NCBI GenBank assembly: GCA_020057555.1
Contig: JAGVFR010000026.1
Span: forward strand, 22,631-86,630
Direction of reading: 5' to 3'
Length of the DNA: 64,000 bases
DNA from: a bacterium
GTDB lineage: Bacteria; Patescibacteriota; Patescibacteriia; UBA9934; GWF2-40-263
Below the pieces are notes generated by a model. The model was not told the DNA's origin. It did no database searches and saw nothing but the letters and a program-made list of their open reading frames with translations. Made by a program: the position numbers and the translations under genes. How positions within the stretch are numbered: position 1 is the first letter of the stretch; the number at the start of each line of letters is the position of its first letter. Below, piece after piece: positions 6,454 through 58,618 of the stretch.

Positions 6454-6524
6454 GAGCGGTTGTGCTATGTCTCCGTGCCAGCGGACTCCTCGCCGCTGTT
6501 CACTTCGACATAGCACAACCGCTC
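6454..6524 (-). repeat. conserved-core hairpin element, copy 1 (acts as prfA terminator)
   Basis: Outer stem GAGCGGTTGTGCTATGTC / GACATAGCACAACCGCTC. Core AACAGCGGCGAGGAGTCCGCTGGCACGGAGACAT on the minus strand. Followed on the minus strand by TTTTTT. Confidence 0.65.
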
Positions 6525-7968: not shown

Positions 7969-8089
7969 AGGTTTTTGACACGCTTTCATACGTGCCATGC
8001 GTGCGAAGATTAACAAGCTGGGTTAACATTGTCAAGAGTTTGAGAAAATAGTAGAAAAGTAGCAAAGTAGTAGAGTAGTAAAGGGAATT

Positions 8090-9181
8090 ATGACACAAAT
8101 TACAGAATTCAATTATCATCTTCCAAGAGAGTTAATCGCACAATGCTCTGTCCAGCCTCGCGACCAATCACGGCTCATGGTTTTGGATAAACAAACAGGG
8201 AAGTTGAACCACAAGAAATTTTTTGAGATTGTTGATGAGTTGAAAACAGGTGATGTACTTGTATTTAATGATACAAAAGTTTTTAGAGCCCGGCTCAAGA
8301 CGCAAAATGGAATTGAGATATTTTTGTTGCGTGCGCGGGAAGACGATATTTGGGAAGTTTTGGCGCGTCCGGGAAAGAAGTTGCAGGTTGGACAAACACT
8401 TTGTATTGAACATGAAACAGAAAAACTTTGTGGAGAAGTGATGTCAAAACAATCAGACGGAACTGTTTTGATAAAATTTGATCGCGTACCAAATGACGTA
8501 ATCGCGTTTGCAAATATATACGGAGAGATTCCTATTCCTCCTTATGTGAAAAATATACCGGAGCGATTGGAAGATTATCAAACGATCTATGCAAAAGAGA
8601 CAGGTTCTGTTGCGGCGCCAACAGCCGGTTTTCACTTCACAGAAGATCTTATGGAAGAATTAAAATCAAAAGGCGTGCAATTCGAATTTGTAACACTTCA
8701 CGTTGGAATTGGAACTTTTCGTCCAATGAAAACAGAAACGATCGAGGAACATGAAATGCACAGCGAGTTTGTTTCTGTCTCAAAAGAGACAGCAGATCGG
8801 ATCAATCAAGCAAAAAAAGATGAGCGACGCGTGATCGCTGTTGGAACGACAACAGTTCGTACACTTGAAGGAGTCGCAAATTATCCCCTGAGCGAAGGTC
8901 AATTAGGCCTTCGACAGGCTCAGGCAATAATTGACCGAAGTCGAATGGGTAATTTTTATCTTCCAGATGGTTTTACAGGCGACGTTAATCTATTTATCAA
9001 ACCAGGCTTTGATTTCAAAATAATTGATGGGCTTATAACGAATTTTCATTTACCAAAATCAACATTACTGGTTTTGGTTTCGGCTTTTGCTGGAAGAGAA
9101 AATGTTTTGCGCGCGTATGAAGAAGCAGTTGCGCAACAGTATCGTTTTTTTTCCTTTGGCGACGCGATGTTTATTGCTTGA
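8090..9181 (+). CDS. queA: S-adenosylmethionine:tRNA ribosyltransferase-isomerase
   Basis: 363 aa with QueA blocks TAGFHFT, TLHVGIGTFRP, AVGTTTVRTLE, ITNFHLPKSTLL and YRFFSFGDAMFI. Carries an in-frame repeat-element insertion at about 8885-8950. Confidence 0.9.
   Translation: MTQITEFNYHLPRELIAQCSVQPRDQSRLMVLDKQTGKLNHKKFFEIVDELKTGDVLVFNDTKVFRARLKTQNGIEIFLLRAREDDIWEVLARPGKKLQVGQTLCIEHETEKLCGEVMSKQSDGTVLIKFDRVPNDVIAFANIYGEIPIPPYVKNIPERLEDYQTIYAKETGSVAAPTAGFHFTEDLMEELKSKGVQFEFVTLHVGIGTFRPMKTETIEEHEMHSEFVSVSKETADRINQAKKDERRVIAVGTTTVRTLEGVANYPLSEGQLGLRQAQAIIDRSRMGNFYLPDGFTGDVNLFIKPGFDFKIIDGLITNFHLPKSTLLVLVSAFAGRENVLRAYEEAVAQQYRFFSFGDAMFIA
8885..8950 (+). repeat. MITE-like palindromic element inserted in-frame in queA (copy A)
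   Basis: Arms CCTGAGCGAAGG / CCTTCGACAGGCTCAGG. The 26-mer GCCTTCGACAGGCTCAGGCAATAATT (8907-8932) is identical to 57312-57337 and 25/26 identical to 34816-34841. Confidence 0.7.
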
Positions 9182-15271: not shown

Positions 15272-16534
15272 ATGAAAAATTCTATTGAATCTATTCACGC
15301 TGACGAGATATTAGATTCACGCGGAAATCCAACTGTTCAAGTTTCGGTTTTGTTAAAAGATGGAACTGTTGGTTTAGCATCTGTGCCAAGCGGTGCTTCA
15401 ACAGGGTCACACGAAGCGCTCGAACTGCGAGACAATGATAAAAAAAGATACAAAGGAAAAGGTGTGTTGAAAGCAGTTCACAATGTCAATACGACGATTG
15501 CAAAAGCTCTGTACGGAATTGATGTTTCAAAACAACGACAGATCGATCAGATCATGATTGATCTTGATGGTACAAAAAACAAAAGTCGTCTTGGTGCAAA
15601 CGCAATTTTAGGTGTGTCGCTCGCGTGCGCTCATGTTGCGGCAAAAGCAAAAAAGATGCCGCTCTATTCGTATCTGCGTTTTGTGTTTGATATTTCACAT
15701 AAAAAATATCGTTTACCGATTCCAACAATGAACGTGCTAAACGGCGGTGCGCATGCAGGATGGATTTTGGATTTTCAGGAATTTATGATTGTTCCGGTTC
15801 AACATTCGTTTAAAGAGCGAATGCGTTGTGGCGCGGAAGTTTTTTATTCACTTGGAGAACTTTTGAAAAAGAAAGGTTTTACTACATTGAAAGGAGATGA
15901 GGGTGGCTACGCGGTGAAGCTGAAAAAAAATGAAGAAGCTTTGAAATTTATAATGAAAGCGATCAAGCAAGCTGGATATCAAGCTGGAAAAAATGTTTTT
16001 CTTGCGATCGATCCGGCAGTTTCAGAACTTTATAATAAAAAAGACAATCGTTATCATCTAAAAGTTGACAATAAGACTTTGACACAAAAGCAAGTGATTG
16101 CTTTGTGGAAGAGTTGGATTAAAAAATATCCGATTATTTCTTTGGAAGATGGATTGGATCAAGATGATTGGAATGGTTGGGTTGAAATGACAAAACAGAT
16201 CGGAAAGAAAGTCGCGCTTGTTGGCGATGATTTTTTTGTGACAGATGTTGAACGATTGCAAAAAGGAATAAAACTTGGCGCAGGAAATGCAATTTTAATC
16301 AAAGTGAATCAGATTGGAACTTTATCTGAAGCAATGGATGCGATTTTGCTTGCCCAACAGTTCGGGTATAAGGTTTCTGTCTCTCATCGTTCTGGAGAAA
16401 CAGAAGACACGACAATCGCTGATTTGGCTGTTGCTGTGAATGCGGATTTTATCAAAACAGGTTCTTTGTCGCGTTCAGAACGGCTTGCGAAATATAATAG
16501 GTTGTTGGAAATAGAGGAGGAAGTAGCAAAGTAG
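15272..16534 (+). CDS. eno: enolase
   Basis: EILDSRGNPTVQV and SHRSGETED motifs. Alternative start at 15263. Confidence 0.9.
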   Translation: MKNSIESIHADEILDSRGNPTVQVSVLLKDGTVGLASVPSGASTGSHEALELRDNDKKRYKGKGVLKAVHNVNTTIAKALYGIDVSKQRQIDQIMIDLDGTKNKSRLGANAILGVSLACAHVAAKAKKMPLYSYLRFVFDISHKKYRLPIPTMNVLNGGAHAGWILDFQEFMIVPVQHSFKERMRCGAEVFYSLGELLKKKGFTTLKGDEGGYAVKLKKNEEALKFIMKAIKQAGYQAGKNVFLAIDPAVSELYNKKDNRYHLKVDNKTLTQKQVIALWKSWIKKYPIISLEDGLDQDDWNGWVEMTKQIGKKVALVGDDFFVTDVERLQKGIKLGAGNAILIKVNQIGTLSEAMDAILLAQQFGYKVSVSHRSGETEDTTIADLAVAVNADFIKTGSLSRSERLAKYNRLLEIEEEVAK

Positions 16535-16571
16535 AAAGGGGAAAGGGAGAAAAGGGGTGAGTGGTAATGAA

Positions 16572-19474: not shown

Positions 19475-19495
19475 CTCTATTGACTTTTGTTATTT

Positions 19496-20566
19496 ATGAA
19501 AGCAATCATTCTTGCAGGAGGAGTTGGCACAAGACTTTGGCCAATGTCTCGCCAGAAAAAACCAAAACAATTTTTTGAAATTGTAAATGATGTTCCTCTA
19601 ATAAAAGAAACTTACAATCGTCTTCTTAGATTGTTGCCGTCTGAAAAAATATTTTTTTCCATTTCTCCTTCGTTTGACAATCTTTTACACGAGATACTTC
19701 CAGAAATTTCAAACGATCATATTTTGATTGAACCTGAAAAACGAGACACCGGTCCTGCAATGGGTTACGTTGCCGCGTTAATGGAACTTTATGATTCTGA
19801 TGAACCGATAGTATTTATCCCATCCGATCATAATATTAAAGATGAAGAAATGTTTTTGCGTACACTTGAGGTAGGAGACATGCTTGTAAGAAAAACAGGA
19901 AAACTTCTTGACATAGCTGTGACTCCGACTTTTCCAAGCACTGTTCTTGGATACACTAGGATTGGTGAATTGTATGACACAATAAACGACGTCAAGGTTT
20001 ATCGTTTCGCTGGTCACACAGAAAAACCTCCATACGAAGTTGCAAAACAATATCTTGAAAAAGGATCATATTTGTGGCATGCAAATTATTACATGTGGAC
20101 ACCGCGCAAGTTTATGGAAGCGTTTGAAACATACGCGCCAGAGATTGGAAAAGTGTTGAGAGAAATTCAACATACAACCCTTCGACAGGCTCAGGGTATA
20201 GATGTTTTCTTCAGATCGCTTCCCAAAATATCTTTTGATTATTCTGTTACAGAAAAAATGGATCCACAAGAAGTTCTAATAATGAAAGGAAATTTTGGTT
20301 GGAGCGATATTGGTGCATGGGATACTTTGTGCGATCATCTTTCAGATAAAGGACAAAATGTTACAAAAGGAAAGTGTTTAATGATAGATACAAAAGGATC
20401 TTTGGTGTATGCGCCTGAAAATAAACTTGTTGCAGTATTAGGCATGGAAGATGTTATCATTGTTGATACTGGTGACGCCTTGCTTGTGTGTCCAAAATCA
20501 CGCGCACAAGAAGTTAAAAAAATTGTAGAAAAACTTCTGGAAAGTGGAGACGATAAACTAATATAA
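19496..20566 (+). CDS. mannose-1-phosphate guanylyltransferase-like sugar nucleotidyltransferase
   Basis: ILAGGVGTRLWPMSR nucleotidyltransferase motif. Contains a 19-nt partial copy of the CTTCGACAGGCTCAGG repeat at 20178-20196. Confidence 0.75.
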   Translation: MKAIILAGGVGTRLWPMSRQKKPKQFFEIVNDVPLIKETYNRLLRLLPSEKIFFSISPSFDNLLHEILPEISNDHILIEPEKRDTGPAMGYVAALMELYDSDEPIVFIPSDHNIKDEEMFLRTLEVGDMLVRKTGKLLDIAVTPTFPSTVLGYTRIGELYDTINDVKVYRFAGHTEKPPYEVAKQYLEKGSYLWHANYYMWTPRKFMEAFETYAPEIGKVLREIQHTTLRQAQGIDVFFRSLPKISFDYSVTEKMDPQEVLIMKGNFGWSDIGAWDTLCDHLSDKGQNVTKGKCLMIDTKGSLVYAPENKLVAVLGMEDVIIVDTGDALLVCPKSRAQEVKKIVEKLLESGDDKLI

Positions 20567-21674: not shown

Positions 21675-22946
21675 ATGGATTATTTTGAAACAGGAGTTGC
21701 TTGGCCGGATGTGAAATGTCCGGTCATAGCAGAACGGCCGTTAAGAGTCGCAAACGGACGTTCAGATGGACACACAGTGATCTCATCTCTCAAAGTTGTC
21801 GTACTTGTTAATGGTTGTTTGTATGCCGTTCTTGAGGATGGTCATGGATTGCGAGCAGGTGACATACTTTCTCGCAACTTTGATCTAACTCGAAAAAAAG
21901 GATGTGATACAACAGAACCAACTGAGCAAGTTTTCGTTCGTTACAAGAGTATATTTGACGCACGTCGTGGAATAGGGCGCGTTTATGGCCGATATCGGGA
22001 AATCGAAATTCCTGAATTGGCTCGCTGGAAAATGGATACAGATTGGTTGTTTCGAACTTCGTGGACGCTACATCGCGCAACAAAGGAGCAAGAAGAGCAA
22101 TTCGTCTGGCAAGCCGAGCGTTGTATCAAGAAGCACGAGAAAGACACATCCGAAATCAAACTTGACGCGCTCCGTCGGTTATTAAAGATTCAGACAATGA
22201 CGGACTCACTCGGCCGACGAAACACAACTATGATTCCTATGTTGTGCTGTGCTATTGACCGATCACTTGAAGCTCGCACACAGCAAGTTCGCGGAATTGG
22301 AAGACGAATGGATTGGCGTGCAATGGTGCTTGAGCACGTCATTGATCAGATACAAGCCGAATGTCGGGCTATCCGTCGAGCCGCGTTGGACGTTCTTCAA
22401 GCAAATGATATCTTCGGAGAAGCGCGTACGCCAAGAACATTGCGCGGTCGCGCGAATCGAATAAGCGACTACGCGGAATTCCTCAAAATAGTTCAAGTTC
22501 GGACCTTCACACGCGTGTTTGCGCACGTTGTTAGTGAACTCAAAGAGGTCGCTGAACTTTTTCATGACGCGGCTAGTAAGCGTGACAGTGGACATCTTGA
22601 ACGTGCTCGTCTGCTTCTTGGCAAGATATATCGTTCAATGATTTTACTTGAACAGCACTGGCGGCTTGAAGAGGTTTTGGTAGTTGTCAGTTCACACGTT
22701 CACAACGGTGAAGTCCTATCTGCTTATCAGATTCGTCTTTTCACAGACGAACTTGATGAAGTGCATCGCACATTGACCAATCCAGACCCTGTTACTGGAG
22801 TCCACATTGATACGGACTTTGAGACAGATGTGTTGCCAATCGTTGTTGGCAATGTGCTTTCTTGTCTGACTAATCTTCGAGGTGAAGACGACGTATTTCT
22901 TCCGTCGTTGTATGACGACTTGAAGATCGCGTGCAAACCTCTCTGA
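21675..22946 (+). CDS. hypothetical protein (orphan, composition-atypical, Arg-rich helical)
   Basis: 423-codon ORF behind GAGGGAAAG. No family recognised. Own terminator. Confidence 0.55.
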   Translation: MDYFETGVAWPDVKCPVIAERPLRVANGRSDGHTVISSLKVVVLVNGCLYAVLEDGHGLRAGDILSRNFDLTRKKGCDTTEPTEQVFVRYKSIFDARRGIGRVYGRYREIEIPELARWKMDTDWLFRTSWTLHRATKEQEEQFVWQAERCIKKHEKDTSEIKLDALRRLLKIQTMTDSLGRRNTTMIPMLCCAIDRSLEARTQQVRGIGRRMDWRAMVLEHVIDQIQAECRAIRRAALDVLQANDIFGEARTPRTLRGRANRISDYAEFLKIVQVRTFTRVFAHVVSELKEVAELFHDAASKRDSGHLERARLLLGKIYRSMILLEQHWRLEEVLVVVSSHVHNGEVLSAYQIRLFTDELDEVHRTLTNPDPVTGVHIDTDFETDVLPIVVGNVLSCLTNLRGEDDVFLPSLYDDLKIACKPL

Positions 22947-22969
22947 CCCCAAAAACGGGGTCTTTTTTT
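22945..22969 (+). terminator. intrinsic terminator
   Basis: GACCCC-AAAAA-CGGGGTC followed by TTTTTTT. Shares the TCTCTGACCC...GGGTCTTTTT design with 12004-12031. Confidence 0.7.
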
Positions 22970-22993
22970 GATGTGATACAATGGCATTGCTTT

Positions 22994-24994
22994 ATGTCCG
23001 CGCTTATTGATTACGAAAAGGATTTAAATAAACATCAACTCGAGGTTGTACTTCATGGAGATGGGCCTGTTTTGGTTTTGGCAGGCGCTGGTTCTGGAAA
23101 AACTCGCACAATTACATATCGGGTTGCGTATTTACTTGAACAAGGAGTTTTGCCACAACAGATTTTGCTTTTAACTTTTACAAATAAGGCGGCACGCGAG
23201 ATGTTGTCTCGAGTTGCAAAATTGGCTGGGAAAGATTTGAGAGGTTTGTGGGGCGGAACTTTTCACTCGATCGCAAATCGGATGTTACGTTTATATGCGC
23301 ATAAAATTGGTTATACACAGAATTTTACGATTCTTGATCAAGAGGATACTAACTCGTTAATTAAAACGTGTTTGAAAGAAATGAATGTTGATACAAAGGA
23401 ACGACGTTTTCCATCACCCGCAAACATTGCGTCGATTTTAAGCTATGCGCGTAATGCGTCTGTTCCTGTGAGATCTGTTCTAGAAGATCGAAATTCCAAT
23501 TTTTTTTCTCTGTATTCTATTTTTGATCGGCTTGTTGAAGTTTACGCGCAACACAAACGCAATGCAGACGCAATGGATTTTGATGACTTGTTATTAAATC
23601 TCCAGAGACTACTTGTTGAAAACCCTGACATCTGTGAACAATTTTCTAATCAATTCAGATATGTGCTTGTTGATGAATATCAAGACACAAATGTAATTCA
23701 GGCTAATCTTGTGAGATTGTTAAGCGCGACACATAAAAATATTCTTGTTGTTGGAGATGACGCCCAATCAATATATTCTTTTCGCGCAGCATGTATTCGG
23801 AACATTTTGGATTTTTCAAAAATGTATCCCAGCGCGAAAACATTTCGTTTGACAACGAATTATCGTTCAACGCCTGAAATTTTGGATATCGCAAATTGTT
23901 CAATCGGAAATAATTACGATCAATTCAAAAAAGACCTCAAGTCATTTTGTCCATCACTTGAAAAACCTCGAGTTGCTGGGCTTGCAAATGGAACAAAAGA
24001 AGCTCAATACATAACAAAAGAAATTAGTAAGTTGATAAAAGACGGGATACCTTTAAGAGAGATTGCTGTGCTGTTTCGTGCCGCGTTTCACTCCCAGGCG
24101 CTTGAGTTTGAATTAATGAAGCGCTGTATTTCGTATGAGTATAGAGGAGGTCTAAGATTTTTTGCACGCGCTCATGTGAAAGATGTGCTCGCATATTTAC
24201 GTTTGAAAGCAAATCCAAAAGACGAGGCGGCATGGCTGCGTGTTCTTGGGCACCAACCAGGAATTGGGATCGTGACTGCGCAAAAGATAATTTTCAATAT
24301 TCAATCAGTTGGAGATCTTTCGCAGGTTTGTTCAATGGATATTTCACTTCCAAAAAGAGCTTTTTCAGCTTGGTCATCTTTGATTGGTATTTTGCGGAAA
24401 TTGATTTCACAATCACTTCCTTCAGATCTGATTCGTGTTGTTATGGAGGGCGATTATCGTTCTTACATAGAAACAGAATATCCTGATTTCAAAGAACGTT
24501 TAGATGATTTGGAACAGTTTGCATTGTTTGCTGAAGAGTCGTCCGAGTTAACAAAGTTTTTATCTGAATTATCATTGACTGATGAGTATGGAGTTTCAAA
24601 AAATGATTCCGGTAATACGAATCAAGAGCAGATTGTATTATCAACGATTCATCAAGCTAAAGGATTGGAGTGGGATGCCGTATTTGTAATTCATGTTGTT
24701 GATGGAAAATTTCCTAGTCCGCGTTCTATGAATGAGGACGGCGGCATTGAAGAAGAACGTCGTTTGTTTTATGTTGCGACAACGCGCGCGCGAAAAAAAC
24801 TTTATTATACTTATCCGATGACAAGTGGAGGTGAATCGTATTTTATTCAGCAACCATCGTTGTTTTTGCAAGAGTTACCCAAGAAATTGTTTGAGCAAGC
24901 AAACCAAATTCAGACTGAACCAGAAGAGGCGACAATCGTGTATGATGAAATTGGTGAGCGGAAAAGTTTTTTAAGAAGTGTTGATGAATTATGA
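22994..24994 (+). CDS. ATP-dependent DNA helicase PcrA/UvrD family
   Basis: Walker A AGAGSGKT, DEYQDTN, and SF1 helicase motifs through TIHQAKGLEW and YVATTRAR. Start refined to ATG 22994. Confidence 0.9.
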   Translation: MSALIDYEKDLNKHQLEVVLHGDGPVLVLAGAGSGKTRTITYRVAYLLEQGVLPQQILLLTFTNKAAREMLSRVAKLAGKDLRGLWGGTFHSIANRMLRLYAHKIGYTQNFTILDQEDTNSLIKTCLKEMNVDTKERRFPSPANIASILSYARNASVPVRSVLEDRNSNFFSLYSIFDRLVEVYAQHKRNADAMDFDDLLLNLQRLLVENPDICEQFSNQFRYVLVDEYQDTNVIQANLVRLLSATHKNILVVGDDAQSIYSFRAACIRNILDFSKMYPSAKTFRLTTNYRSTPEILDIANCSIGNNYDQFKKDLKSFCPSLEKPRVAGLANGTKEAQYITKEISKLIKDGIPLREIAVLFRAAFHSQALEFELMKRCISYEYRGGLRFFARAHVKDVLAYLRLKANPKDEAAWLRVLGHQPGIGIVTAQKIIFNIQSVGDLSQVCSMDISLPKRAFSAWSSLIGILRKLISQSLPSDLIRVVMEGDYRSYIETEYPDFKERLDDLEQFALFAEESSELTKFLSELSLTDEYGVSKNDSGNTNQEQIVLSTIHQAKGLEWDAVFVIHVVDGKFPSPRSMNEDGGIEEERRLFYVATTRARKKLYYTYPMTSGGESYFIQQPSLFLQELPKKLFEQANQIQTEPEEATIVYDEIGERKSFLRSVDEL

Positions 24995-25500
24995 AAACAG
25001 GAATTATAATTATTGCACTTGTAATTTTGTTTGTTGTTTCGGTTGTTTGGTTTAGACAGCCAAAAGAAACAGTCGAAAATCGGATAGATTCGATCGCTGA
25101 TGTATTAATACCCGATCCAATTTCTCAAGCTGTTATTAGCGGGGCCATTGATACGGAGTCCAAAACAGGACAACTATTTCTGGTTTCGACATCGGAGGAT
25201 GTTGGACAGGCACTAAGGGGTTTGAAGGATGATCGTTATTTTTTTGAAATAAAATCTCGGCTTCCGGAGATTGATCGTGAGGTATTTTATTATAATGTTT
25301 GGCTTGTACGGCAAATTCCATATGGTTATTTTTCTTTAGGTGAGATGATTACAAATGATGATGGTGATTTTGTTTTGGTTTGGGAGTCACAAGATAACAA
25401 TAATTATTTTGGTTATACAGAAATTGTAATTACGCGTCAGGAGTTTAGTGGGAGTAAAGATCCATCAATTCACATTGTTGAAGGGGAATTCGGAGAATGA
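24991..25500 (+). CDS. hypothetical membrane-anchored protein
   Basis: 169 aa with an N-terminal TM helix. ATGA overlap with the helicase gene. No family recognised. Confidence 0.5.
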   Translation: MKTGIIIIALVILFVVSVVWFRQPKETVENRIDSIADVLIPDPISQAVISGAIDTESKTGQLFLVSTSEDVGQALRGLKDDRYFFEIKSRLPEIDREVFYYNVWLVRQIPYGYFSLGEMITNDDGDFVLVWESQDNNNYFGYTEIVITRQEFSGSKDPSIHIVEGEFGE

Positions 25501-26687
25501 AATCCGCTTGATCTTTCTTTGAAATGGACATCAATTAATGATGCGCGAGTCCAAGCATTTGACCCGTATCGATTTTGAATTTCATCAAGTGTTTTTTGAA
25601 GTGAATGTACCTTACGTTCTTTTTTGAATAGTGATTGATGCTCATTTCCTCTTGAAAGGGTTGTAGCAGAAATACCTAACAAGCGTACTGGTTTTGATTC
25701 GTCCAACCATTGATCAATCATTTGCCACGCAATTTTAAAAAGCGTTAAGCCATTTGAAGTTGGTTCTGTAAATTTTTGCTGTTGCGTCATTTCATTGAAA
25801 TCTGCATATCGAACAACTACATGTACACATCTTGCGACAAGACATTCTTTTCGAAGACGCCCTGCAACACGGTCAGAAAGTCCGAGCAAACAATATTTCA
25901 TTTCTTTTTTATTATCTGTATTTTCCGAAAGCGTATATGAGTGACCAATTGATTTTGGTTCTTCATATGTATTTATCACTGGAGAATCATCGCGCCCATG
26001 AGCGGCTTCATACAACCAGTATCCGTACGATTTGAATTCATTTACAAGTTTTTCCAATGAAAATTTTCTTAATTGTTCAAATGTGTTTATTCCAAGAGCG
26101 TTGAGTCGGTTTTCTATCTTTGTTCCAATTCCACACAAGTCTTTTAATTTACAAGTATCAAGGAATTTTAATATATTTTGTTGATTGACTGTTGTGATAC
26201 CGTTTGGCTTTACTTGTTCTGAACACAACTTTGCCATTAGTTTATTTGGAGCGATTCCAATTGAACATGTAATTTGTTCCCCGCATGTTTCCTTGATGCG
26301 TTCTCTTATTATTTGCGCAAGAACAATTGCTTCGAGATAATCAGTAGCAGTTTTACTTACATCCAAAAAACATTCATCAATGCTAAATTGTTCAACACAA
26401 TCTGTATATTCATTAAATATAGAATTAAATTGACATGTAATGTAAGAATATTTTTCCGGGTCACCTGGATATAGAATCATTGACGGACAGATACGCTTTG
26501 CTTCCCATGTTGACATTGCTGTTTTTACACCGAGTTTTTTTGCCTCAATCGATGCTGTTGCAATAACTGAACGTTCTTGGTGTTTTCCGGTTATGCCAAT
26601 TGGTTTACCGCGCAAAAACGGGTTAGCTTGTTGTTCGACTGAAGCGAAATACGAATTCATGTCAATGTGAATAATAATTCTGGACAT
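25470..26687 (-). CDS. dinB: DNA polymerase IV (Y-family)
   Basis: IIHIDMNSYFASVEQ start motif and full Y-family layout. Confidence 0.9.
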   Translation of the reverse strand: MSRIIIHIDMNSYFASVEQQANPFLRGKPIGITGKHQERSVIATASIEAKKLGVKTAMSTWEAKRICPSMILYPGDPEKYSYITCQFNSIFNEYTDCVEQFSIDECFLDVSKTATDYLEAIVLAQIIRERIKETCGEQITCSIGIAPNKLMAKLCSEQVKPNGITTVNQQNILKFLDTCKLKDLCGIGTKIENRLNALGINTFEQLRKFSLEKLVNEFKSYGYWLYEAAHGRDDSPVINTYEEPKSIGHSYTLSENTDNKKEMKYCLLGLSDRVAGRLRKECLVARCVHVVVRYADFNEMTQQQKFTEPTSNGLTLFKIAWQMIDQWLDESKPVRLLGISATTLSRGNEHQSLFKKERKVHSLQKTLDEIQNRYGSNAWTRASLIDVHFKERSSGFHSPNSPSTM

Positions 26688-26700
26688 GCGTGTTTAAGTT

Positions 26701-26943
26701 TTAGTTATATAGCTCTACTAAATGCCACTCAAGGTATTCAGGATCGAGTTTTAGTTTGAAGTAATTTGTATTATCAGAAACAGAGAAATAGAAAATTCGT
26801 TTTTGACCTTCTCTTGCAGTATGTACGAGATTTACATTTGAAATATCATAGTCACGTTCATTCCAACGGATTCGTTTTGGTATAACGCGGTTTTGGCAGA
26901 ATGAAGCGATTACATCAATTTGATCGTTTAGAAATTCATGCAT
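26701..26943 (-). CDS. hypothetical protein co-transcribed with dinB
   Basis: 80-codon ORF ending 13 nt before the dinB start, on the same strand downstream of lexA. No family recognised. Confidence 0.45.
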   Translation of the reverse strand: MHEFLNDQIDVIASFCQNRVIPKRIRWNERDYDISNVNLVHTAREGQKRIFYFSVSDNTNYFKLKLDPEYLEWHLVELYN

Positions 26944-27062
26944 AGGAGAGAAGTTGGAGAAGTTAGAGAAGCTGGAGAGGCTGAAGTACGTGATGTCTTT
27001 AAGTTGAGATATAGTGACGTAATATCTGTTTCAAACGTCTTCGACTTGTTAGAATACGTATT

Positions 27063-27077
27063 GTTCTGACACAGTTC
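27063..27077. promoter_or_regulatory. candidate LexA operator (GTTC-N7-GTTC)
   Basis: GTTCTGACACAGTTC, upstream of the orf80-dinB pair. Confidence 0.3.
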
Positions 27078-27246
27078 AGAACTTTTCTGTCTCTACGTGT
27101 TGGAAGAAAAGACAGTGTTAGGTTATGGTACCGAAGAGTTGTGGCAGACATAGAGGTATGGTTTTTTATAAATTGATTAGCAATTCTAAAACTGTCACAC
27201 GTGAGGTAATTTTCCTGTTACGTGCCGAAAATGTTTATAGTGATTT

Positions 27247-27861
27247 TTATACTGGTCTAAATTGTCGGATAACTGCGCGAACTACGCCCTGAATAATACA
27301 ATCTTTTACGTATATAGGATTCATTGTGCTGTTTGCAGGTTGAAGACGTATACGCCTTTGCTCTCGATAAAATCGTTTCAATGTTGCATAAGCATTATCA
27401 AGCAAAGCAACAACCACTTCGCCGTTTTTTGGTGATGGATTGCGTTCAATGACAACATAATCACCATCTAGAATTCCGTCTTCAATCATTGAACGTCCTT
27501 TTACACGAAGAACAAATGAATTTGCTCCATCAAGCACGAAAGTTGCTGGCACAGCCATTGTTTCTCGATCTTCAACAGCCTCGATTGGCTCTCCTGCCGT
27601 GATCAAACCAAGCATTGGCAGAAGAACTGAAGGTTCATCCTGTTCCGACGATACAAGTTCGATTGATCTTGCTTCTCCTTCATCACCGACTGTTATTTCT
27701 CCTTTTTCAACAAGAGTTTGAATATGAGTATAAACAGTGGCAGGGGATGAAAGTCCAAAGTGTTCACCGATCTCTCTGTATGATGGTGCGTAACCTCGAT
27801 TTTTTATGTGTGTACGAATGTGGGCGAGAATTTCTGCTTGTTTTTTTGTAAGAGGAGGCAT
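27247..27861 (-). CDS. lexA: LexA repressor
   Basis: N-terminal wHTH (YREIGEHFGLSSPATVYTHIQTL). S24 peptidase domain with VKGRSMIEDGI and downstream Lys (LKR). Confidence 0.9.
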   Translation of the reverse strand: MPPLTKKQAEILAHIRTHIKNRGYAPSYREIGEHFGLSSPATVYTHIQTLVEKGEITVGDEGEARSIELVSSEQDEPSVLLPMLGLITAGEPIEAVEDRETMAVPATFVLDGANSFVLRVKGRSMIEDGILDGDYVVIERNPSPKNGEVVVALLDNAYATLKRFYREQRRIRLQPANSTMNPIYVKDCIIQGVVRAVIRQFRPV

Positions 27862-27921: not shown

Positions 27922-28067
27922 GCAAGAGGCAGATTGTGGATAAGTATGGGAGAGTAGATAAGTAGTAGAGTAGCAAAGTAGAAAAGGGAATTGATTGGTG
28001 ATTTTACTGCAAATTTTTCAACCCTCTGCTACTATGCTACTCTTCTACTCTGCTACTTTTTTATCCT

Positions 28068-31336: not shown

Positions 31337-31405
31337 GAGCGTGGAGCTGTGTCGCAGGGAACAGCGGCGAAGAGTCCGCTGGCCCGGAGACATAGCTCCA
31401 CGCTC
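31337..31405 (+). repeat. conserved-core hairpin element, copy 2 (between convergent genes)
   Basis: Outer stem GAGCGTGGAGCTGTGTC / GACATAGCTCCACGCTC. Core AACAGCGGCGAAGAGTCCGCTGGCCCGGAGACAT. T-rich tract follows. Confidence 0.65.
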
Positions 31406-34118: not shown

Positions 34119-34172
34119 AGGTGGAGATAGTAGTTAGTAGCAGAGTAGCATAGTAGCGGAAGGTTGAAAAAT

Positions 34173-34815: not shown

Positions 34816-34841
34816 GCCTTCGACAAGCTCAGGCAATAATT
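34816..34841 (+). repeat. MITE-like element right arm (copy C)
   Basis: GCCTTCGACAAGCTCAGGCAATAATT, 25/26 identical to copies at 8907-8932 and 57312-57337. Lies in the 74-bp divergent region. Confidence 0.6.
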
Positions 34842-34854
34842 CTATAATGTCTTC

Positions 34855-36252
34855 ATGCTTTCTCGAATTACTGAAAAAACTTTCTATCAATACATCAAAT
34901 GCCCGAATTGGGTTTACTTTGATGTGCATGCATTTGAAAAACGAGTTCGTGATCCTCTTATGGATCGCTTGATTGATGATGGGCTTCTTGATGAAAAACA
35001 GCGTGAGATCATTTCTGATCGCACTGACATGGTAGAAGTTACATCTGAAGATCCTGATGAAGCGTTTCGACAAACACTTGAGTTTATGCGCGAAGGTCGT
35101 CAAACGATTTTTCACTCTGTACTCATTGATAAAAATTTTGTTGGACATCCTGATGTGCTTGAAAAAGTTGAAGGGCGTTCGAAGCTTGGTGATTTTTATT
35201 ATGTTGCGGTTGATCTTAAACGTTCACGTTTTTTACGCGACGATCATAAATTTCAAGGATGTTTTTATGCTGAACTTCTTGAACGAATTCAAGATGTGAA
35301 GCCTGTTCAAGGTTACATCATCACACCTGACAAAATTGTTTTGCCATATTTGATTAGTGAGTTTGAAGGAGAATTCACTCTTACACTTTCAGAGATTGAA
35401 AAGATTATTGTTGGCACACAGCCAGTTCATTTTGTAACTTCAGGATGTAAACAATCACCATGGTTCAAAGAATGTCGTGGTGAATCCGAAACGTGCGATG
35501 ATTTGTCGTTATTGAATCGAGTTTGGCGTCAAGAAGTTGCTCGTTTGTTAAAAGCAGGAGTCAACACAATATCGGAACTTTCGCTAAAATCTTTGGTTGA
35601 TCTTGAGCGTTTGGCTCCTGATGTTAGTTCATCTCGGCTTGAGATTATGCGCGATCAAGCAATTGCGATAAAGGAGCATCGGCATATTTTTCGTGGAACG
35701 GTTGAACTTCCTGTTGCAAAGATCGAAGTTTTTTTTGATATTGAAAGTGATCCGCTTCGAGATTTTGATTATCTTTTTGGAGTGCTTGTAGTTGAAAATC
35801 GCAGTGAATCGTATCAATCGTTTTTTGCGGTAACTCCAGCGCAAGAAAAAGACGCGTGGGATGAGTTTGTCGCTTTTGTTGAAGGACATTTGGACGCGCC
35901 GATTTATCACTTTGGTCAGTTTGAAGTTGAAGTTGTTAATCGTTTTAGCGCGCGATATGGGATTTCTGCGATTGCGCGAGAAGCGCTTGAACGTAACATG
36001 ATTGATTTGCTTGAAGTGATTCGTCCTGCTGTAATTTTTCCTTTGTCATTTTATTCGCTCAAAGATATTGCCGCTTATTTGGGTTTTGAGTGGCGTGCTT
36101 CTGACGCATCTGGTGCGAATTCTGTTTTGTGGTTTGAAGAATGGTTGAAGAAAAAAAATCAAAAGTTGTTGCAAAAAATTCTTGAGTATAATGAAGATGA
36201 CGTGCGCGCAACTGCTCATGTAAAAAAATGGTTATGTGAAAATGCAATATGA
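34855..36252 (+). CDS. TM0106-family RecB-like nuclease
   Basis: N-terminal ITEKTFYQYIKCPNWVYF (PD-(D/E)xK/Cas4-like region), DIESDP exonuclease-like block and C-terminal YNEDDVRAT, typical of the family. Confidence 0.7.
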   Translation: MLSRITEKTFYQYIKCPNWVYFDVHAFEKRVRDPLMDRLIDDGLLDEKQREIISDRTDMVEVTSEDPDEAFRQTLEFMREGRQTIFHSVLIDKNFVGHPDVLEKVEGRSKLGDFYYVAVDLKRSRFLRDDHKFQGCFYAELLERIQDVKPVQGYIITPDKIVLPYLISEFEGEFTLTLSEIEKIIVGTQPVHFVTSGCKQSPWFKECRGESETCDDLSLLNRVWRQEVARLLKAGVNTISELSLKSLVDLERLAPDVSSSRLEIMRDQAIAIKEHRHIFRGTVELPVAKIEVFFDIESDPLRDFDYLFGVLVVENRSESYQSFFAVTPAQEKDAWDEFVAFVEGHLDAPIYHFGQFEVEVVNRFSARYGISAIAREALERNMIDLLEVIRPAVIFPLSFYSLKDIAAYLGFEWRASDASGANSVLWFEEWLKKKNQKLLQKILEYNEDDVRATAHVKKWLCENAI

Positions 36253-37139
36253 AAACAAGTTGGTTTCGAAATTGTGCGGAGTTAATTATCTTGATCGCTA
36301 TCATTGCCACGGTTTACACACAACGCGTGGGGATTTCGCAGTGGTTTCGAGAAATGATGGAGCCGTCTGTGCCAGAGGCAGTGGAGTTTGAAAAAATAAC
36401 AGAGGAAAAGGAAGAAGGTAGTCGCGGGCTTCAGCCCGCGCAAGCGCCAGTCATCCCGAGTGCCGTCGATGGATCTGAAGAAAAAATATTGCCTGAACCT
36501 GTTGAAGGCAGTATAGATGATGTAGTTGTCACTTCGACAAGCTCAGTGGATAAAATTTTGCCTGTTGAAATCAATCTCGCTGTTCCTTTTACATCTCAAG
36601 CTCCGCACGCGAATTGGGATTTACCATATAAAGAAACATGCGAAGAAGCATCGCTCTATATGGTTGATGTTTATTATAAAGGAGTAAAAGCGGGGAAGAT
36701 TGCGGCTGATACTGCGGACGAGGAGATTAAAAAAATTATAGAATTTGAAAAAGAAATTTTTGGATATTATGAAGACACAACCGCAGAACAAGTTGGAATT
36801 CTTGCGGAAATGATGTATGGTCACGAAAAAATTGAACTGATCGAAAATCCAACTGTTGAACAAATTAAAAAACATGTTGCTGAAGGACATCCGGTTATTG
36901 TTCCTGCGGCAGGACGAGAACTTGGTAATCCGAATTTCACAGCGCCTGGTCCGATATATCACATGTTAGTGATTCGCGGATACACAAAAGATGGTAAATT
37001 CATCACAAATGATCCGGGCACAAAAAACGGCGAAGCATATGTTTACGATTTTGACACAGTTATGAACGCGATGCATGATTGGAACAATGGTGACGAGATC
37101 ACGGAAGGAAAAAAGGTAGTACTAATTGTTTATCCATAA
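36249..37139 (+). CDS. C39-like peptidase domain protein, membrane-anchored
   Basis: N-terminal TM and a low-complexity linker. VPFTSQAPHANWDLPYKETCEEASLYM matches the Peptidase_C39_2-type N-terminus. Confidence 0.6.
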   Translation: MKTSWFRNCAELIILIAIIATVYTQRVGISQWFREMMEPSVPEAVEFEKITEEKEEGSRGLQPAQAPVIPSAVDGSEEKILPEPVEGSIDDVVVTSTSSVDKILPVEINLAVPFTSQAPHANWDLPYKETCEEASLYMVDVYYKGVKAGKIAADTADEEIKKIIEFEKEIFGYYEDTTAEQVGILAEMMYGHEKIELIENPTVEQIKKHVAEGHPVIVPAAGRELGNPNFTAPGPIYHMLVIRGYTKDGKFITNDPGTKNGEAYVYDFDTVMNAMHDWNNGDEITEGKKVVLIVYP

Positions 37140-37668: not shown

Positions 37669-37841
37669 TCGTTGCGAAGCCGAACCATGTCTCCGGGCCA
37701 ACGGACTTTTCGCCGTTTGTGTTGTCCGGTCTGGCTTTCAGACAGACATCGGCCAACCCGTTTCGGAGGTACGAAGCCAAGCAGTTGGCTTCTTTACTCC
37801 TCCTCTACTCCCTTCGACATGGTTCGAGCTTCGCAACGACA
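37669..37841 (-). repeat. conserved-core hairpin element, copy 4 (expanded, 173 nt)
   Basis: 24-25-nt outer stem GTCGTTGCGAAGCCGAACCATGTC / GACATGGTTCGAGCTTCGCAACGAC. Core on the minus strand AAACGGCGAAAAGTCCGTTGGCCCGGAGACATG. Inner hairpin GAAGCCAA-GCAG-TTGGCTTC. Confidence 0.6.
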
Positions 37842-41217: not shown

Positions 41218-41428
41218 GAACTAGAGATTCGCCGTAGAAAACGGGTTCCGAAAGGATAAATCCCGTCGAGGTGAAAGAAAAACGTTTGGCGTTTTTCGAT
41301 CAACTTGCGGTGTGAATCGCAGGTTCTTTTATTAAAGGTCGAAAAATAAATAGCCATTAGCCGTTAGCCACTAGCCTTTAGGAAGGCAGTTAATCGAGCT
41401 AATAGCTAAAGGCTAACAGCTTTCCCTT
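41218..41428 (+). promoter_or_regulatory. structured rplJ leader (possible L10-type autoregulatory leader)
   Basis: About 210-nt leader. 9-bp hairpin CGAAAAACG/CGTTTTTCG. Terminator-like CTTGCG-N8-CGCAGG + TTCTTTTA. TAGCC/GGCTA word hairpin before the ATG. Confidence 0.3.
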
Positions 41429-48234: not shown

Positions 48235-48307
48235 GATCAGTTTGCATCATGTCGTAAGGAACAACGGCGAAGAGTCCGTTGGCCCGGAGATATGGTGCAA
48301 ACTGATC
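48235..48307 (+). repeat. conserved-core hairpin element, copy 3
   Basis: Outer stem GATCAGTTTGCATCATGTC / GATATGGTGCAAACTGATC. Core AACAACGGCGAAGAGTCCGTTGGCCCGGAGATATG with compensatory CAACGG/CCGTTG. Confidence 0.65.
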
Positions 48308-52091: not shown

Positions 52092-52165
52092 CTATTAGCC
52101 GTTAGTATAAATAAGTGAAGCCAAAGCCTAAAGGCTAATGGCTAACAGCTAATGGCCACGCTCCT

Positions 52166-55717: not shown

Positions 55718-55837
55718 TATAGCCATCACATTATAAAATGGGACTTTAGACGACTTACCTGTGGATGGGATGCGAAGGACAAGCAGACCGCCACAGGAAA
55801 GGATGGATAAATCCTATTTCATAATGTGATGGCTATA
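55718..55837. repeat. 120-nt hairpin/MITE-like element with 17-bp perfect terminal inverted repeat
   Basis: TATAGCCATCACATTAT (55718-55734) / ATAATGTGATGGCTATA (55821-55837). Inner helices CCTGTGG/CCACAGG (55758-55764/55791-55797) and AGGAT/ATCCT. Confidence 0.6.
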
Positions 55838-55861
55838 CAGTCTTGCGACCGCGCGGTCGTT

Positions 55862-55957
55862 GGACATTACATTATGATTCCGTACTTATAAAGATGAAAA
55901 ACAAGCAGGTTGCCATTTTTAATTTTTTATGGAGTATGGAACCATAATGTAATGTCC
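55862..55957. repeat. 96-nt hairpin/MITE-like element with 20-bp terminal inverted repeat (1 mismatch)
   Basis: GGACATTACATTATGATTCC (55862-55881) / GGAACCATAATGTAATGTCC (55938-55957). Shares CAT(C/T)ACATTAT with the neighbouring element. Confidence 0.6.
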
Positions 55958-56186
55958 ACATTCCTCTCACAGGTCTTCATTGCAAGCATGGAGCAATGGA
56001 AAACTGTGATTGGAGGGCGACGTTGGAAAGATATCCTTCGTCGCCCAAGAGTTTGCCTTCTCGGCTGGAGGCTCTGCTTCCTCTTGGCTCACCGTTTTAG
56101 GAAGGTGACTCCTTTTTGTCGCGTGTTTCAGATTGTAGTGGAATGTGTTAACTCACTTTGCCCTCCTAAATGTTTGGTTTTTTTGG

Positions 56187-57176
56187 CTACGAGAGCATGG
56201 CCTGGAGCTTGAGCTCGGCCATACGGATCACGCCAGGAACCGTCCAGTTCTTGATCGCACGGACGTCCGCGGCGGTCAGACCAGAGTTGCGAATTTTGAT
56301 AGCCGCGCGACCGAGTTGACGGTACTCGTCCTTGCTCACGCCCGGGACGATCTTGCCCTGAACGCGGCGTGGCGGACGAACCAGACCTAGACCGCATGCG
56401 AGCAAACTTCCGTCGCGCAGGGTTTCGACGTGCGAGCGAGTTTCGGCGATTCTTGCGTCAACGCGTTCTTCGGCCTCGCGCTGAAGCCGTGCTTCCTCGG
56501 TCGCTCTCTCGTCCGCGAACATATTCTCGATTGCCGCCATTGCCTCGGGCACGGTCTGCGATCCGAGCGGCAGAACGGTCTGTGCGCACTTGGGGCAGAA
56601 CGACTTCTGAAGGAGACCATGAACGGTCACCTCCTCGAGCCTCTTGACCCCGATAGCGCGCATGATTGTGCTGAACACGACCGCGACCCTTGCCTCGTTC
56701 ATCGGAACGAGTCGCAGACACTGTCCGAACTTTCCCTGACAGACCACGTGGTCCACGCCGTCCTTCGCAATGACGAGTCCCGGGGTGAACCTGACCTCGG
56801 GCTCGAGAACGGGCTCGGGCGCTGGAGCGGGTGCGGCGGGAGCCTTCTTGGTCTCGGCCTTGTGGACCTTGACCTTCGCCGGCTTCGGTGTCTCGACCTT
56901 CGGAGCCGGGGACGGGTTGGCCTCGGTCTTGGGCGAGACGATCTCCTTGGCCATGATTTCGACAGCCTCGATCGAGGAGCAATCCCTCCAGTTCTGGCCC
57001 GTGACCTCGATGATGTGCATGGCGCGACCGAGCTCGACGTGGGATGCGAGGAAGTTGATCGAGCCCTCGAAGTGACGCTCAACCACACGGCCGAGCTCTT
57101 CGAGTTCGCCAGGGAGACCGGGGCGGGAGTCGTCCTGCGGGATGATCTGAAGTCCGGGAGCCATCTGCGCGACCAT
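56187..57176 (-). CDS. hypothetical protein, very GC-rich orphan (Pro/Ala-rich linker)
   Basis: ORF 56187..57197. Start refined to ATG 57176 behind GGAGG. Strong G/C preference at third codon positions. Linker PSPAPKVETPKPAKVKVHKAETKKAPAAPAPAPEP. No family recognised. Confidence 0.6.
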   Translation of the reverse strand: MVAQMAPGLQIIPQDDSRPGLPGELEELGRVVERHFEGSINFLASHVELGRAMHIIEVTGQNWRDCSSIEAVEIMAKEIVSPKTEANPSPAPKVETPKPAKVKVHKAETKKAPAAPAPAPEPVLEPEVRFTPGLVIAKDGVDHVVCQGKFGQCLRLVPMNEARVAVVFSTIMRAIGVKRLEEVTVHGLLQKSFCPKCAQTVLPLGSQTVPEAMAAIENMFADERATEEARLQREAEERVDARIAETRSHVETLRDGSLLACGLGLVRPPRRVQGKIVPGVSKDEYRQLGRAAIKIRNSGLTAADVRAIKNWTVPGVIRMAELKLQAMLS

Positions 57177-57289
57177 GCGTAACCTCCAAAAAAGCATGTG
57201 TCCTGGGTCCCGAACCTACACCACGTAGGAACGGATCAATTTATAGAACCTATCGGTCCTACGACCTTAGCAGTTTGGAAATTGTTATA

Positions 57290-57338
57290 CCTTGAGCGAA
57301 GGAAAATTACTGCCTTCGACAGGCTCAGGCAATAATTT
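57290..57338 (+). repeat. MITE-like palindromic element (copy E) between the two GC-rich genes
   Basis: CCTTGAGCGAAGG...GCCTTCGACAGGCTCAGGCAATAATT. The 26-mer is identical to the copy inside queA. Confidence 0.7.
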
Positions 57339-57463
57339 GCCGGAGTCGGAGGGTTAGATTCAATTTCTAAACTATTAAGATCGTTCCGGGTGGCGTGTTC
57401 AGGGAAAGAAATCCCTTTACACACCACCCGGAAGATATAGAGCGGAGAGAGCGGAAAGAACTA

Positions 57464-58003
57464 CTAGCCGTTGGCGACCTTGCGGGCCTTGCCCTTGACG
57501 GTCACGATCGGCGTCTCGACGGCGGCGGGAGCCTCGGCGGGCGTGGAGACCGGAGCCGGTGTCACGGCGACCGCGGCCTTGAGCTCGGCCACAACCTGCG
57601 GGCCGACCTGCTCACCGATCGGGGTCGAGGCGAGAGCAGGCTTGGCGGGTGCGGAAGCGGCGGGCTTGGGCGTGAGCTTCGGCGCGGGCTTCTCGGACTT
57701 GGACTTCGGGAAGTAGGACATCGTGTTGACCATGTCCTTGAAGTCCAGGAGCGGTGCGAGGGCCGAGTTCTGCCCCATGCCGTGCTCGATGTTGTCGATG
57801 GCCTTCGTGAGAAGGGCCTTTCCGACGTCTTCGATGCAGCGCATGGTGTAGTACTCGGTGCCGACGTAGTCGTCGCGCTTCTCCGGGTCGAGGCCGAGCA
57901 CCTCGCACGCCTTCGCGAAGATCTTGTCGCGCAACTCCCTTTCGAAGATGCGTCCGTAGAGCGGGGAGGGATCGGTCGAGGGGGCCTGGAAGCTGGTCTT
58001 CAT
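57464..58003 (-). CDS. hypothetical protein, very GC-rich orphan (Pro/Ala-rich C-terminal half)
   Basis: 179-codon ORF behind AAGGAGA. Codon third positions are almost all G/C near the 3' end. 45/60 G+C hand-counted at 57481-57540. No family recognised. Confidence 0.6.
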   Translation of the reverse strand: MKTSFQAPSTDPSPLYGRIFERELRDKIFAKACEVLGLDPEKRDDYVGTEYYTMRCIEDVGKALLTKAIDNIEHGMGQNSALAPLLDFKDMVNTMSYFPKSKSEKPAPKLTPKPAASAPAKPALASTPIGEQVGPQVVAELKAAVAVTPAPVSTPAEAPAAVETPIVTVKGKARKVANG

Positions 58004-58499: not shown

Positions 58500-58573
58500 G
58501 ACCCGTATGTCGGTGAGGTTAGAATTTTAGCTAAAATTAGACAAAAGCTACTGTCAGGATTTTTTAGACTTAT

Positions 58574-58618
58574 CACTCCGTCACTTCTTCACTCCGTCAC
58601 TTCTTCACTCCGTCACTT
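58574..58618 (+). repeat. 16-bp tandem repeat, 2.8 copies
   Basis: CACTCCGTCACTTCTT x2 plus CACTCCGTCACTT, ending 21 nt before the holB start. Confidence 0.85.

Follow-up and report, generated by a model that had tools for sequence, protein, structure and literature searches.

The window analysed here is a stretch of 64,000 nucleotides from contig JAGVFR010000026.1, densely packed with genes and with a GC content of about 40%, and the subject of this study is a small palindromic repeat that lies in frame within the gene queA and belongs to a wider family of hairpin repeats. The best homologues of the QueA and guanylyltransferase proteins of the window bear the name Candidatus Uhrbacteria, which places the sequence in that group of the candidate phyla radiation (CPR)/Patescibacteria. 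The queA open reading frame (ORF) is full length and intact, its product matches Pfam PF02547 (E = 3.9e-127) and the solved QueA structures 1vky (E = 9e-102), 1yy3 and 1wdi, and the gene order prfA-rpmE-queA-SIMPL-rpsB-tsf is kept in relatives. Apart from the repeat the gene is as conventional as a preliminary description, made from the nucleotide sequence alone, had stated.

8090-9181, plus strand: queA, tRNA preQ1(34) S-adenosylmethionine ribosyltransferase-isomerase, 363 aa, the host gene
8882-8950, plus strand: net 69-nt (23-codon) insertion in queA, a composite hairpin with provisionally three tiers, conceptual translation YPLSEGQLGLRQAQAIIDRSRMG (residues 265-287), delimited by empty orthologous sites and by alignment with a second copy

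The insertion in queA and the loop that carries it

The preliminary description had proposed that a palindromic element interrupts queA without closing the frame and extends a loop of typically about 16 residues to about 41. The string that it quoted was located at 8887-8936, queA reads ...YPLSEGQLGLRQAQAIIDRSRMG... there, and the spacing between the TLE and LFI motifs is 16 residues in Thermotoga maritima QueA and 40 residues in this QueA. In a HMMER alignment, query residues 3-273 and 294-362 pair with residues 14-281 and 278-346 of T. maritima QueA (1vky), leaving about 20-24 query residues without a counterpart. Among the 39 aligned proteins of the Uhrbacteria type, the closest relatives (P0003 and P0005-P0008) contain the short loop GIASVCGELCDFTGDVN (17 residues, counted with its own anchor set) where this QueA contains GVANYPLSEGQLGLRQAQAIIDRSRMGNFYLPDGFTGDVN; P0003 is 84% identical to this QueA over the alignment and 79% identical by BLASTP. 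The orthologous DNA of two related loci (L001 and L008) shows an empty site, and with the short loops of the closest relatives this indicates that the extra residues are not ancestral. Based on the 23-codon difference to the orthologues, the net insertion was placed at 8882-8950, the same stretch that aligns with the second copy, and the insertion itself can be regarded as established by these sequence comparisons. Its GC content is 0.51 (0.40 for queA) and it is free of stop codons in only two of the six frames, one of which is used by queA. Conceptual tryptic peptides from the insert region would be TLEGVANYPLSEGQLGLR and QAQAIIDR.

An AlphaFold2 model based on the 39-sequence alignment (mean predicted local distance difference test score, pLDDT, 86; predicted template modelling score, pTM, 0.86) matches solved QueA structures in Foldseek (E = 1.5e-31) and depicts the insert as an excursion of low confidence, tentatively helical at 274-285 and flanked by a confidently predicted helix (253-264) and strand (295-299). 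Blocks of 10 residues across positions 261-290 have pLDDT values of 69, 59, and 61. The insert-bearing loop is hypervariable in length, has values of 59-69 between well-predicted elements, and is probably exposed on the surface.

Across 118 related proteins the loop ranges from 12 to 56 residues (at most 21 residues in 58 of them), and roughly half of these orthologues carry an expanded loop with diverse repeat-derived peptides. The long-loop peptides are mutually unrelated (e.g., CHPEPFDFAQGKLREGS, HPACPPKPWRRRERSEGS, CHPEGAKRPKDL...SFADAQDDK, SPSPFEGEGRGEV, and PPPFQGGVRGG), and several of them resemble what we take to be translations of known repeats. The core of the family described here was found in the loop of two relatives, in either orientation (LSLRQAQGI in P0009 and LSPEPVEG in P0012), and the queA inserts of relatives L003 and L004 have the outer sequences GTCATCCTG...GAAGGATCT in common and different interiors. 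The alignments identify the QueA loop as a permissive hot spot. Insertion points are shifted by a few codons and reading frames differ, so that a loop tolerant of insertions explains the hot spot better than a precise target site would.

Three further observations concern QueA and its surroundings. At least three more insertion hot spots (alignment columns ~185-217, 230-260, and 283-296) were seen in the QueA proteins of related Uhrbacteria, where they contain peptides that resemble repeats (e.g., DPSPGQATFALVPSD and GTSSSARPSLSNKRLTLGDAERRP). The octamer AGTAGnAA forms short arrays immediately 5' of start codons, including that of queA (8050-8083, 16522-16543, 27951-27986, and 34136-34161), with a complementary CTCTGCTA array at 28024-28057, and may represent a motif of leaders or promoter regions in this lineage. 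On a related contig (L006, 1-2018), gyrB contains an intein (Pfam Intein_splicing), which is another type of in-frame passenger in the same neighbourhood.

A composite hairpin and its copies

Full copies of the composite were identified at four places, in queA, in the spacer of a GC-rich island of the window, and in two metagenome contigs outside the window (L164 and L189), and all four can be parsed in the same way. From the outside in, a 4-bp stem CCCT/AGGG, the junction GAGCGAA, a middle stem of 9-10 bp, and 1-2 unpaired bases lead to an apex stem GCCT/AGGC on the 11-nt loop TCGACARGCTC, which is followed by AA, the 3' arm of the middle stem, and the junction GRAGTCGR. The composite is a nested dimer whose two inverted units, the outer unit CCCT GAGCGAA...GAAGTCGA AGGG and the apex unit GCCT-TCGACAGGCTC-AGGC, belong to one superfamily of hairpin repeats. 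It is 69-77 nt long and has the terminal inverted repeats TTATCCCC...GGGTAA. The parts of the queA copy, all on the plus strand, are as follows.

8886-8896, plus strand: 5' half of the outer unit, stem CCCT and junction GAGCGAA (identical parse in four copies)
8897-8905, plus strand: 5' arm of the middle stem, GGTCAATTA (9/9 complementary to 8928-8936)
8907-8925, plus strand: apex unit GCCT-TCGACAGGCTC-AGGC, 4-bp stem closing a conserved 11-nt loop, core of the family (exact copies at 20179 and 57313)
8928-8936, plus strand: 3' arm of the middle stem, TAATTGACC (four-copy comparison)
8937-8948, plus strand: 3' half of the outer unit, junction GAAGTCGA and stem ATGG, with one mismatch to CCCT (four-copy comparison)

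The arms of the middle stem differ between the four copies:

queA copy: 5' arm GGTCAATTA, 3' arm TAATTGACC
L164 copy: 5' arm GGCAAAGTTA, 3' arm TAACTTTGCC
L189 copy: 5' arm GGCAAGTTA, 3' arm TAACTTGCC
island copy: 5' arm GGAAAATTA, 3' arm TAATTTGCC

Pairing of the middle stem is kept at 36 out of 37 positions over the four copies, and three positions show compensating changes (the count was made by script; the gaps of a MAFFT alignment fell inconsistently). The nested three-tier model builds on covariation in four copies and is provisional. Both pairs of complementary arms that had been pointed out earlier exist, but the two pairings exclude each other and could not form together. Compared with shuffled sequences, folding is significant for the queA copy (z = -3.4, 0/200 shuffles as good) and the island copy (z = -5.4). 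A hammerhead or kink-turn reading of the CUGAGCGA...GAGUCGAAGG junction was rejected by eye, as the core does not fit.

The family is represented elsewhere in the window as listed here.

57284-57360, plus strand: second full composite, intergenic, 77 nt, 60/72 identical to the queA copy (core 26/26)
57272-57283, plus strand: left arm of the hairpin that hosts the island copy, complementary to 57361-57373 (stem also in L130 and L131)
57361-57373, plus strand: right arm of the host hairpin (stem also in L130 and L131)
20179-20195, plus strand: single apex-type unit in a mannose-1-phosphate guanylyltransferase-like gene (19487-20566), read TLRQAQG (exact 17-mer)
34816-34841, plus strand: single intergenic unit just 5' of gene 34855 (25/26 match)
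36484-36552, plus strand: diverged inverted unit pair in a C39-like peptidase gene (36249-37139), read LPEPVEG...TSTSSV (core matches)

Matches to the 26-mer of 8907-8932 lie at 57312-57337 (exact), at 34816-34841 (25/26), and on the minus strand at 36484-36509 (23/26), with 0.00 expected from shuffles; the first two recurrences, and the left arm TGAGCGAAGG beside the exact one (57293-57302), are where the preliminary description had put them. The exact 17-mer core CCTTCGACAGGCTCAGG is also present at 20179-20195, with a diverged copy at 36531-36547. This amounts to a density of about six elements per 64 kb, and three out of five window loci are intragenic. The composites of L164 and L189 are intergenic, so that only one out of four composites lies in frame within a gene, which makes this location the exception for the composite. 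Relative to the direction of transcription two composites are sense and two are antisense, which argues for an element that acts at the level of DNA over one at the level of RNA. In a close relative (L224), the site orthologous to 34816-34841 contains four tandem copies of a 40-nt unit (TGTAGTTTGCCTTCGACAAGCTCAGGCAATAATTCTAAAT), adjoining a promoter-like TATAAT, where the window contains one; the copy number of the unit is thus variable.

The second composite had been assigned to a GC-rich island. It does lie between two orphan genes (56187-57197 and 57464-58003, both on the minus strand) with about 60-65% GC in a genome of 40% GC, but its own spacer has 46-50% GC and is not GC-rich DNA. The orphan genes contain no Pfam or PHROG domains, and the pair is located between TrmB-like and holB-like genes, in the same place in a handful of related contigs. 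Only five homologues of the orphan module were found among 5.8 billion proteins; the three homologous loci that were examined are all equally GC-rich, two of them with syntenic flanking genes, and the compositional anomaly is conserved. The idea that the island is recently acquired foreign DNA that imported the element was rejected, since the orphan genes are conserved, 61-62% GC, and syntenic, and since the spacers of L130 and L131 are empty. Just left of the module, in a stretch without convincing genes, lie two long near-perfect hairpins (55718-55837 and 55861-55958, with arms of 29 nt and 26 nt) that have ACATTATAA / TTATAATGT in common, and a 16-nt sequence is perfectly repeated in tandem (TCACTCCGTCACTTCT x 2.9) at 58573-58618 directly upstream of the holB-like gene 58640.

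Spread and mobility of the family

When one genome per species was scanned for CCTTCGACARGCTCAGG, at least 120 loci in at least 16 phyla were obtained, and the cultured hosts of the 17-mer core include Microbacterium, Sphingomonas, Novosphingobium, and Pedobacter. By our own estimate, about 140 chance hits are expected for a 17-mer in the 596-Gb collection, and the genome count alone therefore proves nothing. Among the genome matches listed, the bases bordering the 17-mer are complementary in 112 out of 135 (about 58 in shuffles), the 11-nt loop is conserved while the stem covaries, an inverted core lies within 60 nt in 41 out of 135, and several loci contain 2-5 copies. Motifs such as GCGAACGG recur downstream of the 17-mer. 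The 24-mer GCCTTCGACARGCTCAGGCAATAA was found in at least 120 metagenome contigs, which are mostly low in GC and typical of CPR, so that the similarity is not limited to the window, and the core is also present in at least 120 viral contigs.

Of the 112 non-redundant CPR-type metagenome copies listed, 43 (~38%) lie within frames that run for at least 150 aa without a stop. Copies inside genes are found in both orientations and always in one of four open frames (PSTSSGN, LRQAQAI, LLPELVEG, and YCLSLSKA). An outer-type unit lies within 80 nt upstream of 43 out of 112 listed copies, and an inverted partner is found nearby at 43 out of 112. Rfam 15 gave no match in the 64 kb at gathering thresholds, and permissive searches with the element and a canonical proteobacterial copy returned microRNA-like hairpin noise only. 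Searches by peptide motif, nucleotide string, and topic for a published account of the family led to primers and unrelated papers only, and the core is absent from the supplements of a survey of repetitive extragenic palindromic (REP) sequences (PMC3733652). The family is very widespread and apparently undescribed.

At two loci, queA and the island spacer, orthologous sites are empty in some relatives and filled here, which establishes that the element is mobile. The island spacer of L130 and L131 forms a plain hairpin with the loop AAAAAA; in the window this loop is replaced by the composite at 57284-57360, and in L129 another repeat (GTCATTCTGAGC...CTCAGGATGAC) occupies the apex of the same hairpin. 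Similarly, L252 contains a 72-nt GC-rich hairpin cluster within the 11-nt loop of the unit equivalent to the one at 20179 (CCTTCGAC, 72 nt, AGGCTCAGGG), and the composite itself consists of an apex unit within the loop of the outer unit. In the collected loci the two halves of a unit are mostly 2 nt apart, with discrete wider classes of 10-13, 20-27, 47-49, and 72-74 nt; many of these intervening stretches form small hairpins. Landing at hairpin tips is recurrent in these sequences. It is not universal, because strong locus-specific flanking stems were found for 13 out of 112 apex units versus 3 out of 109 mismatched controls, and in view of this modest enrichment the proposal of a longer locus-specific stem beneath every apex unit was given up. 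The empty queA site, judged by eye from the unfolded sequence, displays no obvious hairpin.

Two candidates for an associated mobility gene gained no support. In 2.9 Mb of collected loci, a tblastn search with RayT of E. coli identified one true REP-associated tyrosine transposase (RAYT) in L022 (NF047646, 88 bits), which is flanked by its own, different hairpins and is probably a coincidental neighbour, so that an association is not supported. A 2.2-kb segment of L122 that is bracketed by inverted cores proved to be merely a membrane-protein gene.

Origin of the insert and relation to known elements

The favoured reading, to which we assign a probability of about 0.8, is that a small palindromic DNA repeat was copied into the variable-loop region of queA, is apparently translated there, has the structure of a nested composite, and is most likely a selfish or neutral passenger. 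Copying of the non-coding repeat would have taken place at the level of DNA, into the queA segment for the loop between helix 253-264 and strand 295-299, and translation straight through the insert would add 23 residues. The copy would have persisted because the loop tolerates insertions and because it landed in one of only two stop-free frames. As possible modes of movement we favour a single-strand hairpin intermediate with an enzyme supplied in trans, or templated break repair at hairpin tips.

Several points weigh against this reading. The unit at 20179 takes the place of an ancestral segment of equal length, which fits a patch-like conversion better than a simple insertion. No clear target-site duplication could be called at the queA junctions, where the candidate duplications are limited to TA, AAT, or AATT and are indistinguishable from AT-rich context or inverted ends. 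No transposase, integrase, or HUH domains were detected in the 43 window ORFs scanned by Pfam (the other ORFs were assigned by the synteny of relatives or lie outside the scan). The evidence for the nested model comes from four full composites, and energy-based folds fail to reproduce it: minimum-energy and RNAalifold structures favour pairs between outer arm and apex core that are invariant and without covariation. That the insert is translated and not removed appears likely from the intact reading frame.

A spread without any transposase is the alternative that survives best, and we hold it to be possible while favouring it less. Breaks or replication stalls at hairpin tips would be repaired off another hairpin repeat, by template switching or patch gene conversion, and such copying would create nested palindromes. 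This would agree with insertions at hairpin apexes in three independent places, with the occupation of one site by different families (queA and island), with the equal-length replacement at 20179, with the lack of a transposase among the scanned ORFs, and with the unclear target duplication. The right arm of the island host hairpin also seems, by eye, to be re-templated from the left arm (12 out of 13 positions paired, versus 10 Watson-Crick pairs and one G-T pair in the empty relatives). The same repair process is at odds with the empty queA site, where no hairpin is obvious by eye, and with the low frequency of extended stems among apex units, and on its own it would hardly account for the conservation of the 17-mer across phyla.

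A broader proposal is rather doubtful. It assumes an undescribed cross-phylum modular superfamily of hairpins, defined by the 11-nt loop TCGACARGCTC or by a split GAGCGA / GAGTCGA junction with variable stems, of which the queA insert would be one example and which would move through a hairpin intermediate, land by preference on existing hairpin tips (those of other family members among them), travel in viruses, and be a major source of lineage-specific loop insertions in CPR proteins.

The conserved 11-nt loop and junction motifs on covarying stems, the variable inner hairpins that arise from a constant GAGCGA / GAGTCGA junction, and the significant folding scores would also be expected of a functional hairpin that is selected in place, be it an mRNA structure for translational pausing or processing, a protein-binding hairpin, or an intervening sequence that is removed. 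This is unlikely, given that no Rfam family matches even permissively, that composites occur equally in sense and antisense and intragenic copies in both orientations, that the closest queA orthologues work without the element, and that intragenic copies are always stop-free, which would be needless if they were removed.

It is very unlikely that the units are motifs similar to DNA uptake signals, enriched by a competence-driven process and tolerated in genes. CPR bacteria are believed to depend on the uptake of DNA, and the uptake sequences of Neisseria and Haemophilus form inverted pairs that are also found inside genes, but known uptake signals are lineage-specific while the 17-mer spans at least 16 phyla and viral contigs, the density in the window is modest, and a nested architecture would not be expected. 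An assembly artefact is highly improbable: the window does come from a metagenome assembly, in which repeats can cause chimeric misjoins, yet both flanks continue queA in frame with its conserved motifs, the insertion measures exactly 23 codons, and comparable in-frame inserts are present in independent NCBI, ENA, JGI, and Logan assemblies. The notion of ancestral QueA residues with a coincidental or convergent similarity to the repeat, which could appeal to the variable loop and to the long versions common to some clades, is refuted by the exact 26-mer 48 kb away (0.00 expected by chance), by the short loops and empty sites of the closest orthologues, and by the same composite in intergenic DNA of other contigs.

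The copied palindromic repeat favoured here has parallels among known elements. Rickettsia palindromic elements (RPE), reportedly described by Ogata and colleagues in 2000, are ~100-150 bp long and are defined by the consensus sequences RPE-1 to RPE-8 of Rickettsia genomes. Like the queA element they are palindromic and lie in frame in housekeeping genes within variable loops; they are read through, as the queA element appears to be, and sit at the protein surface, where the queA loop probably lies as well, and like its family they have both intergenic and intragenic copies. The parallel with RPE drawn in the preliminary description holds for behaviour and not for membership: the queA element measures 69 nt, its host is Candidatus Uhrbacteria, and it consists of nested 19-25-nt units with a conserved loop and a core common to many phyla, by which description it is set apart. 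RPE-1, RPE-4, and RPE-6 are mentioned in the REP survey (PMC3733652).

The same survey reports REP dimers within genes that encode 20-30 residues, which makes them the closest behaviour described, and different REPs at about one site in recB of two Xanthomonas species, which resembles the QueA hot spot (PMC3733652). REPs, REP doublets forming hairpins (REPINs), and bacterial interspersed mosaic elements (BIMEs) are small hairpin units (imperfect palindromes of 20-40 nt in REPs) that often form inverted pairs, as do the 19-25-nt units of this family. They are mostly located between genes, whereas the intragenic fraction of the family is far higher (43 out of 112 listed metagenome copies and three out of five window loci). 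Classical REPs have conserved stems; in this family the loop is conserved and the stem varies. REPs carry a GTAG or CGTC end tag (PMC3733652); both window composites lack GTAG, CGTC, and their complements, and only a minority of single units have GTAG in front of them. A cognate RAYT was found neither among the Pfam-scanned window ORFs nor in the 2.9 Mb of collected loci.

The term MITE-like (miniature inverted-repeat transposable element) suits the terminal inverted repeats and the presence/absence polymorphism of the queA element, and applies only in part, since no target-site duplication could be called and no parent transposase was found among the scanned window ORFs; a nested pair of small, REP-like hairpins is the more fitting picture. 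Correia elements of Neisseria are bacterial MITEs that add peptides to proteins. So are the QMITEs of Coxiella (PMC5896051). With these the queA element has in common that it is small and non-autonomous and occasionally inserts in frame; in contrast, the units of the family are much smaller, modular, and inserted into each other, with no identifiable target-site duplication or parent insertion sequence in the window. By pure analogy, the conserved 11-nt loop on a covarying stem and the presence of the core in viral contigs might be compared with the origins of HUH proteins. The hairpin origins and nick sites of such Rep/relaxase proteins have a conserved loop and a variable stem; no HUH gene was linked with the family described here. 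Overall, the queA insert is a real in-frame insertion of a mobile palindromic repeat that is RPE-like and a member of neither the RPE nor the classical REP families.

Rickettsia and a few other bacteria are known to have genes colonised in frame by palindromic repeats, and the proteins of CPR/Patescibacteria have been noted for unexplained insertions; no published account of such colonisation in CPR/Patescibacteria was found. In QueA, the loop of a single enzyme has received dozens of differing repeat-derived insertions among relatives. If nested spread with targeting of hairpin apexes proves general, it would provide a concrete, testable mechanism by which small genomes gain protein loop sequence and would establish a new class of mobile DNA of very small size. 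The points of most interest are the loop conserved across phyla, the nested insertion at hairpin tips, and the scale on which protein loops might be remodelled in CPR.

The window contains further repeats and a gene cluster that stand apart from the queA element. No tRNA genes were found in the 64 kb. A second repeat family has four copies (6459-6519, minus strand; 31341-31401, plus strand; 37682-37717, minus strand; 48250-48296, plus strand) with the core ATGTCGnAGGGAAC-ArCGGCGAAGAGTCCGyTGGCCCGGAGACAT, no match in Rfam, and outer stems that vary between copies and remain complementary; a further mobile hairpin element is conceivable here, as is a small structured RNA. At 41351-41381 and 52127-52156, 10.7 kb apart, a sequence with a 7-nt period (TAGCCAT / GCCATTAGCCGTTAGCCACTAGCC) occurs as an inverted pair that is 93% complementary. 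A cluster of genome-maintenance genes at 22931-27861 encodes a UvrD-like helicase, a DinB-type Y-family polymerase, and LexA.

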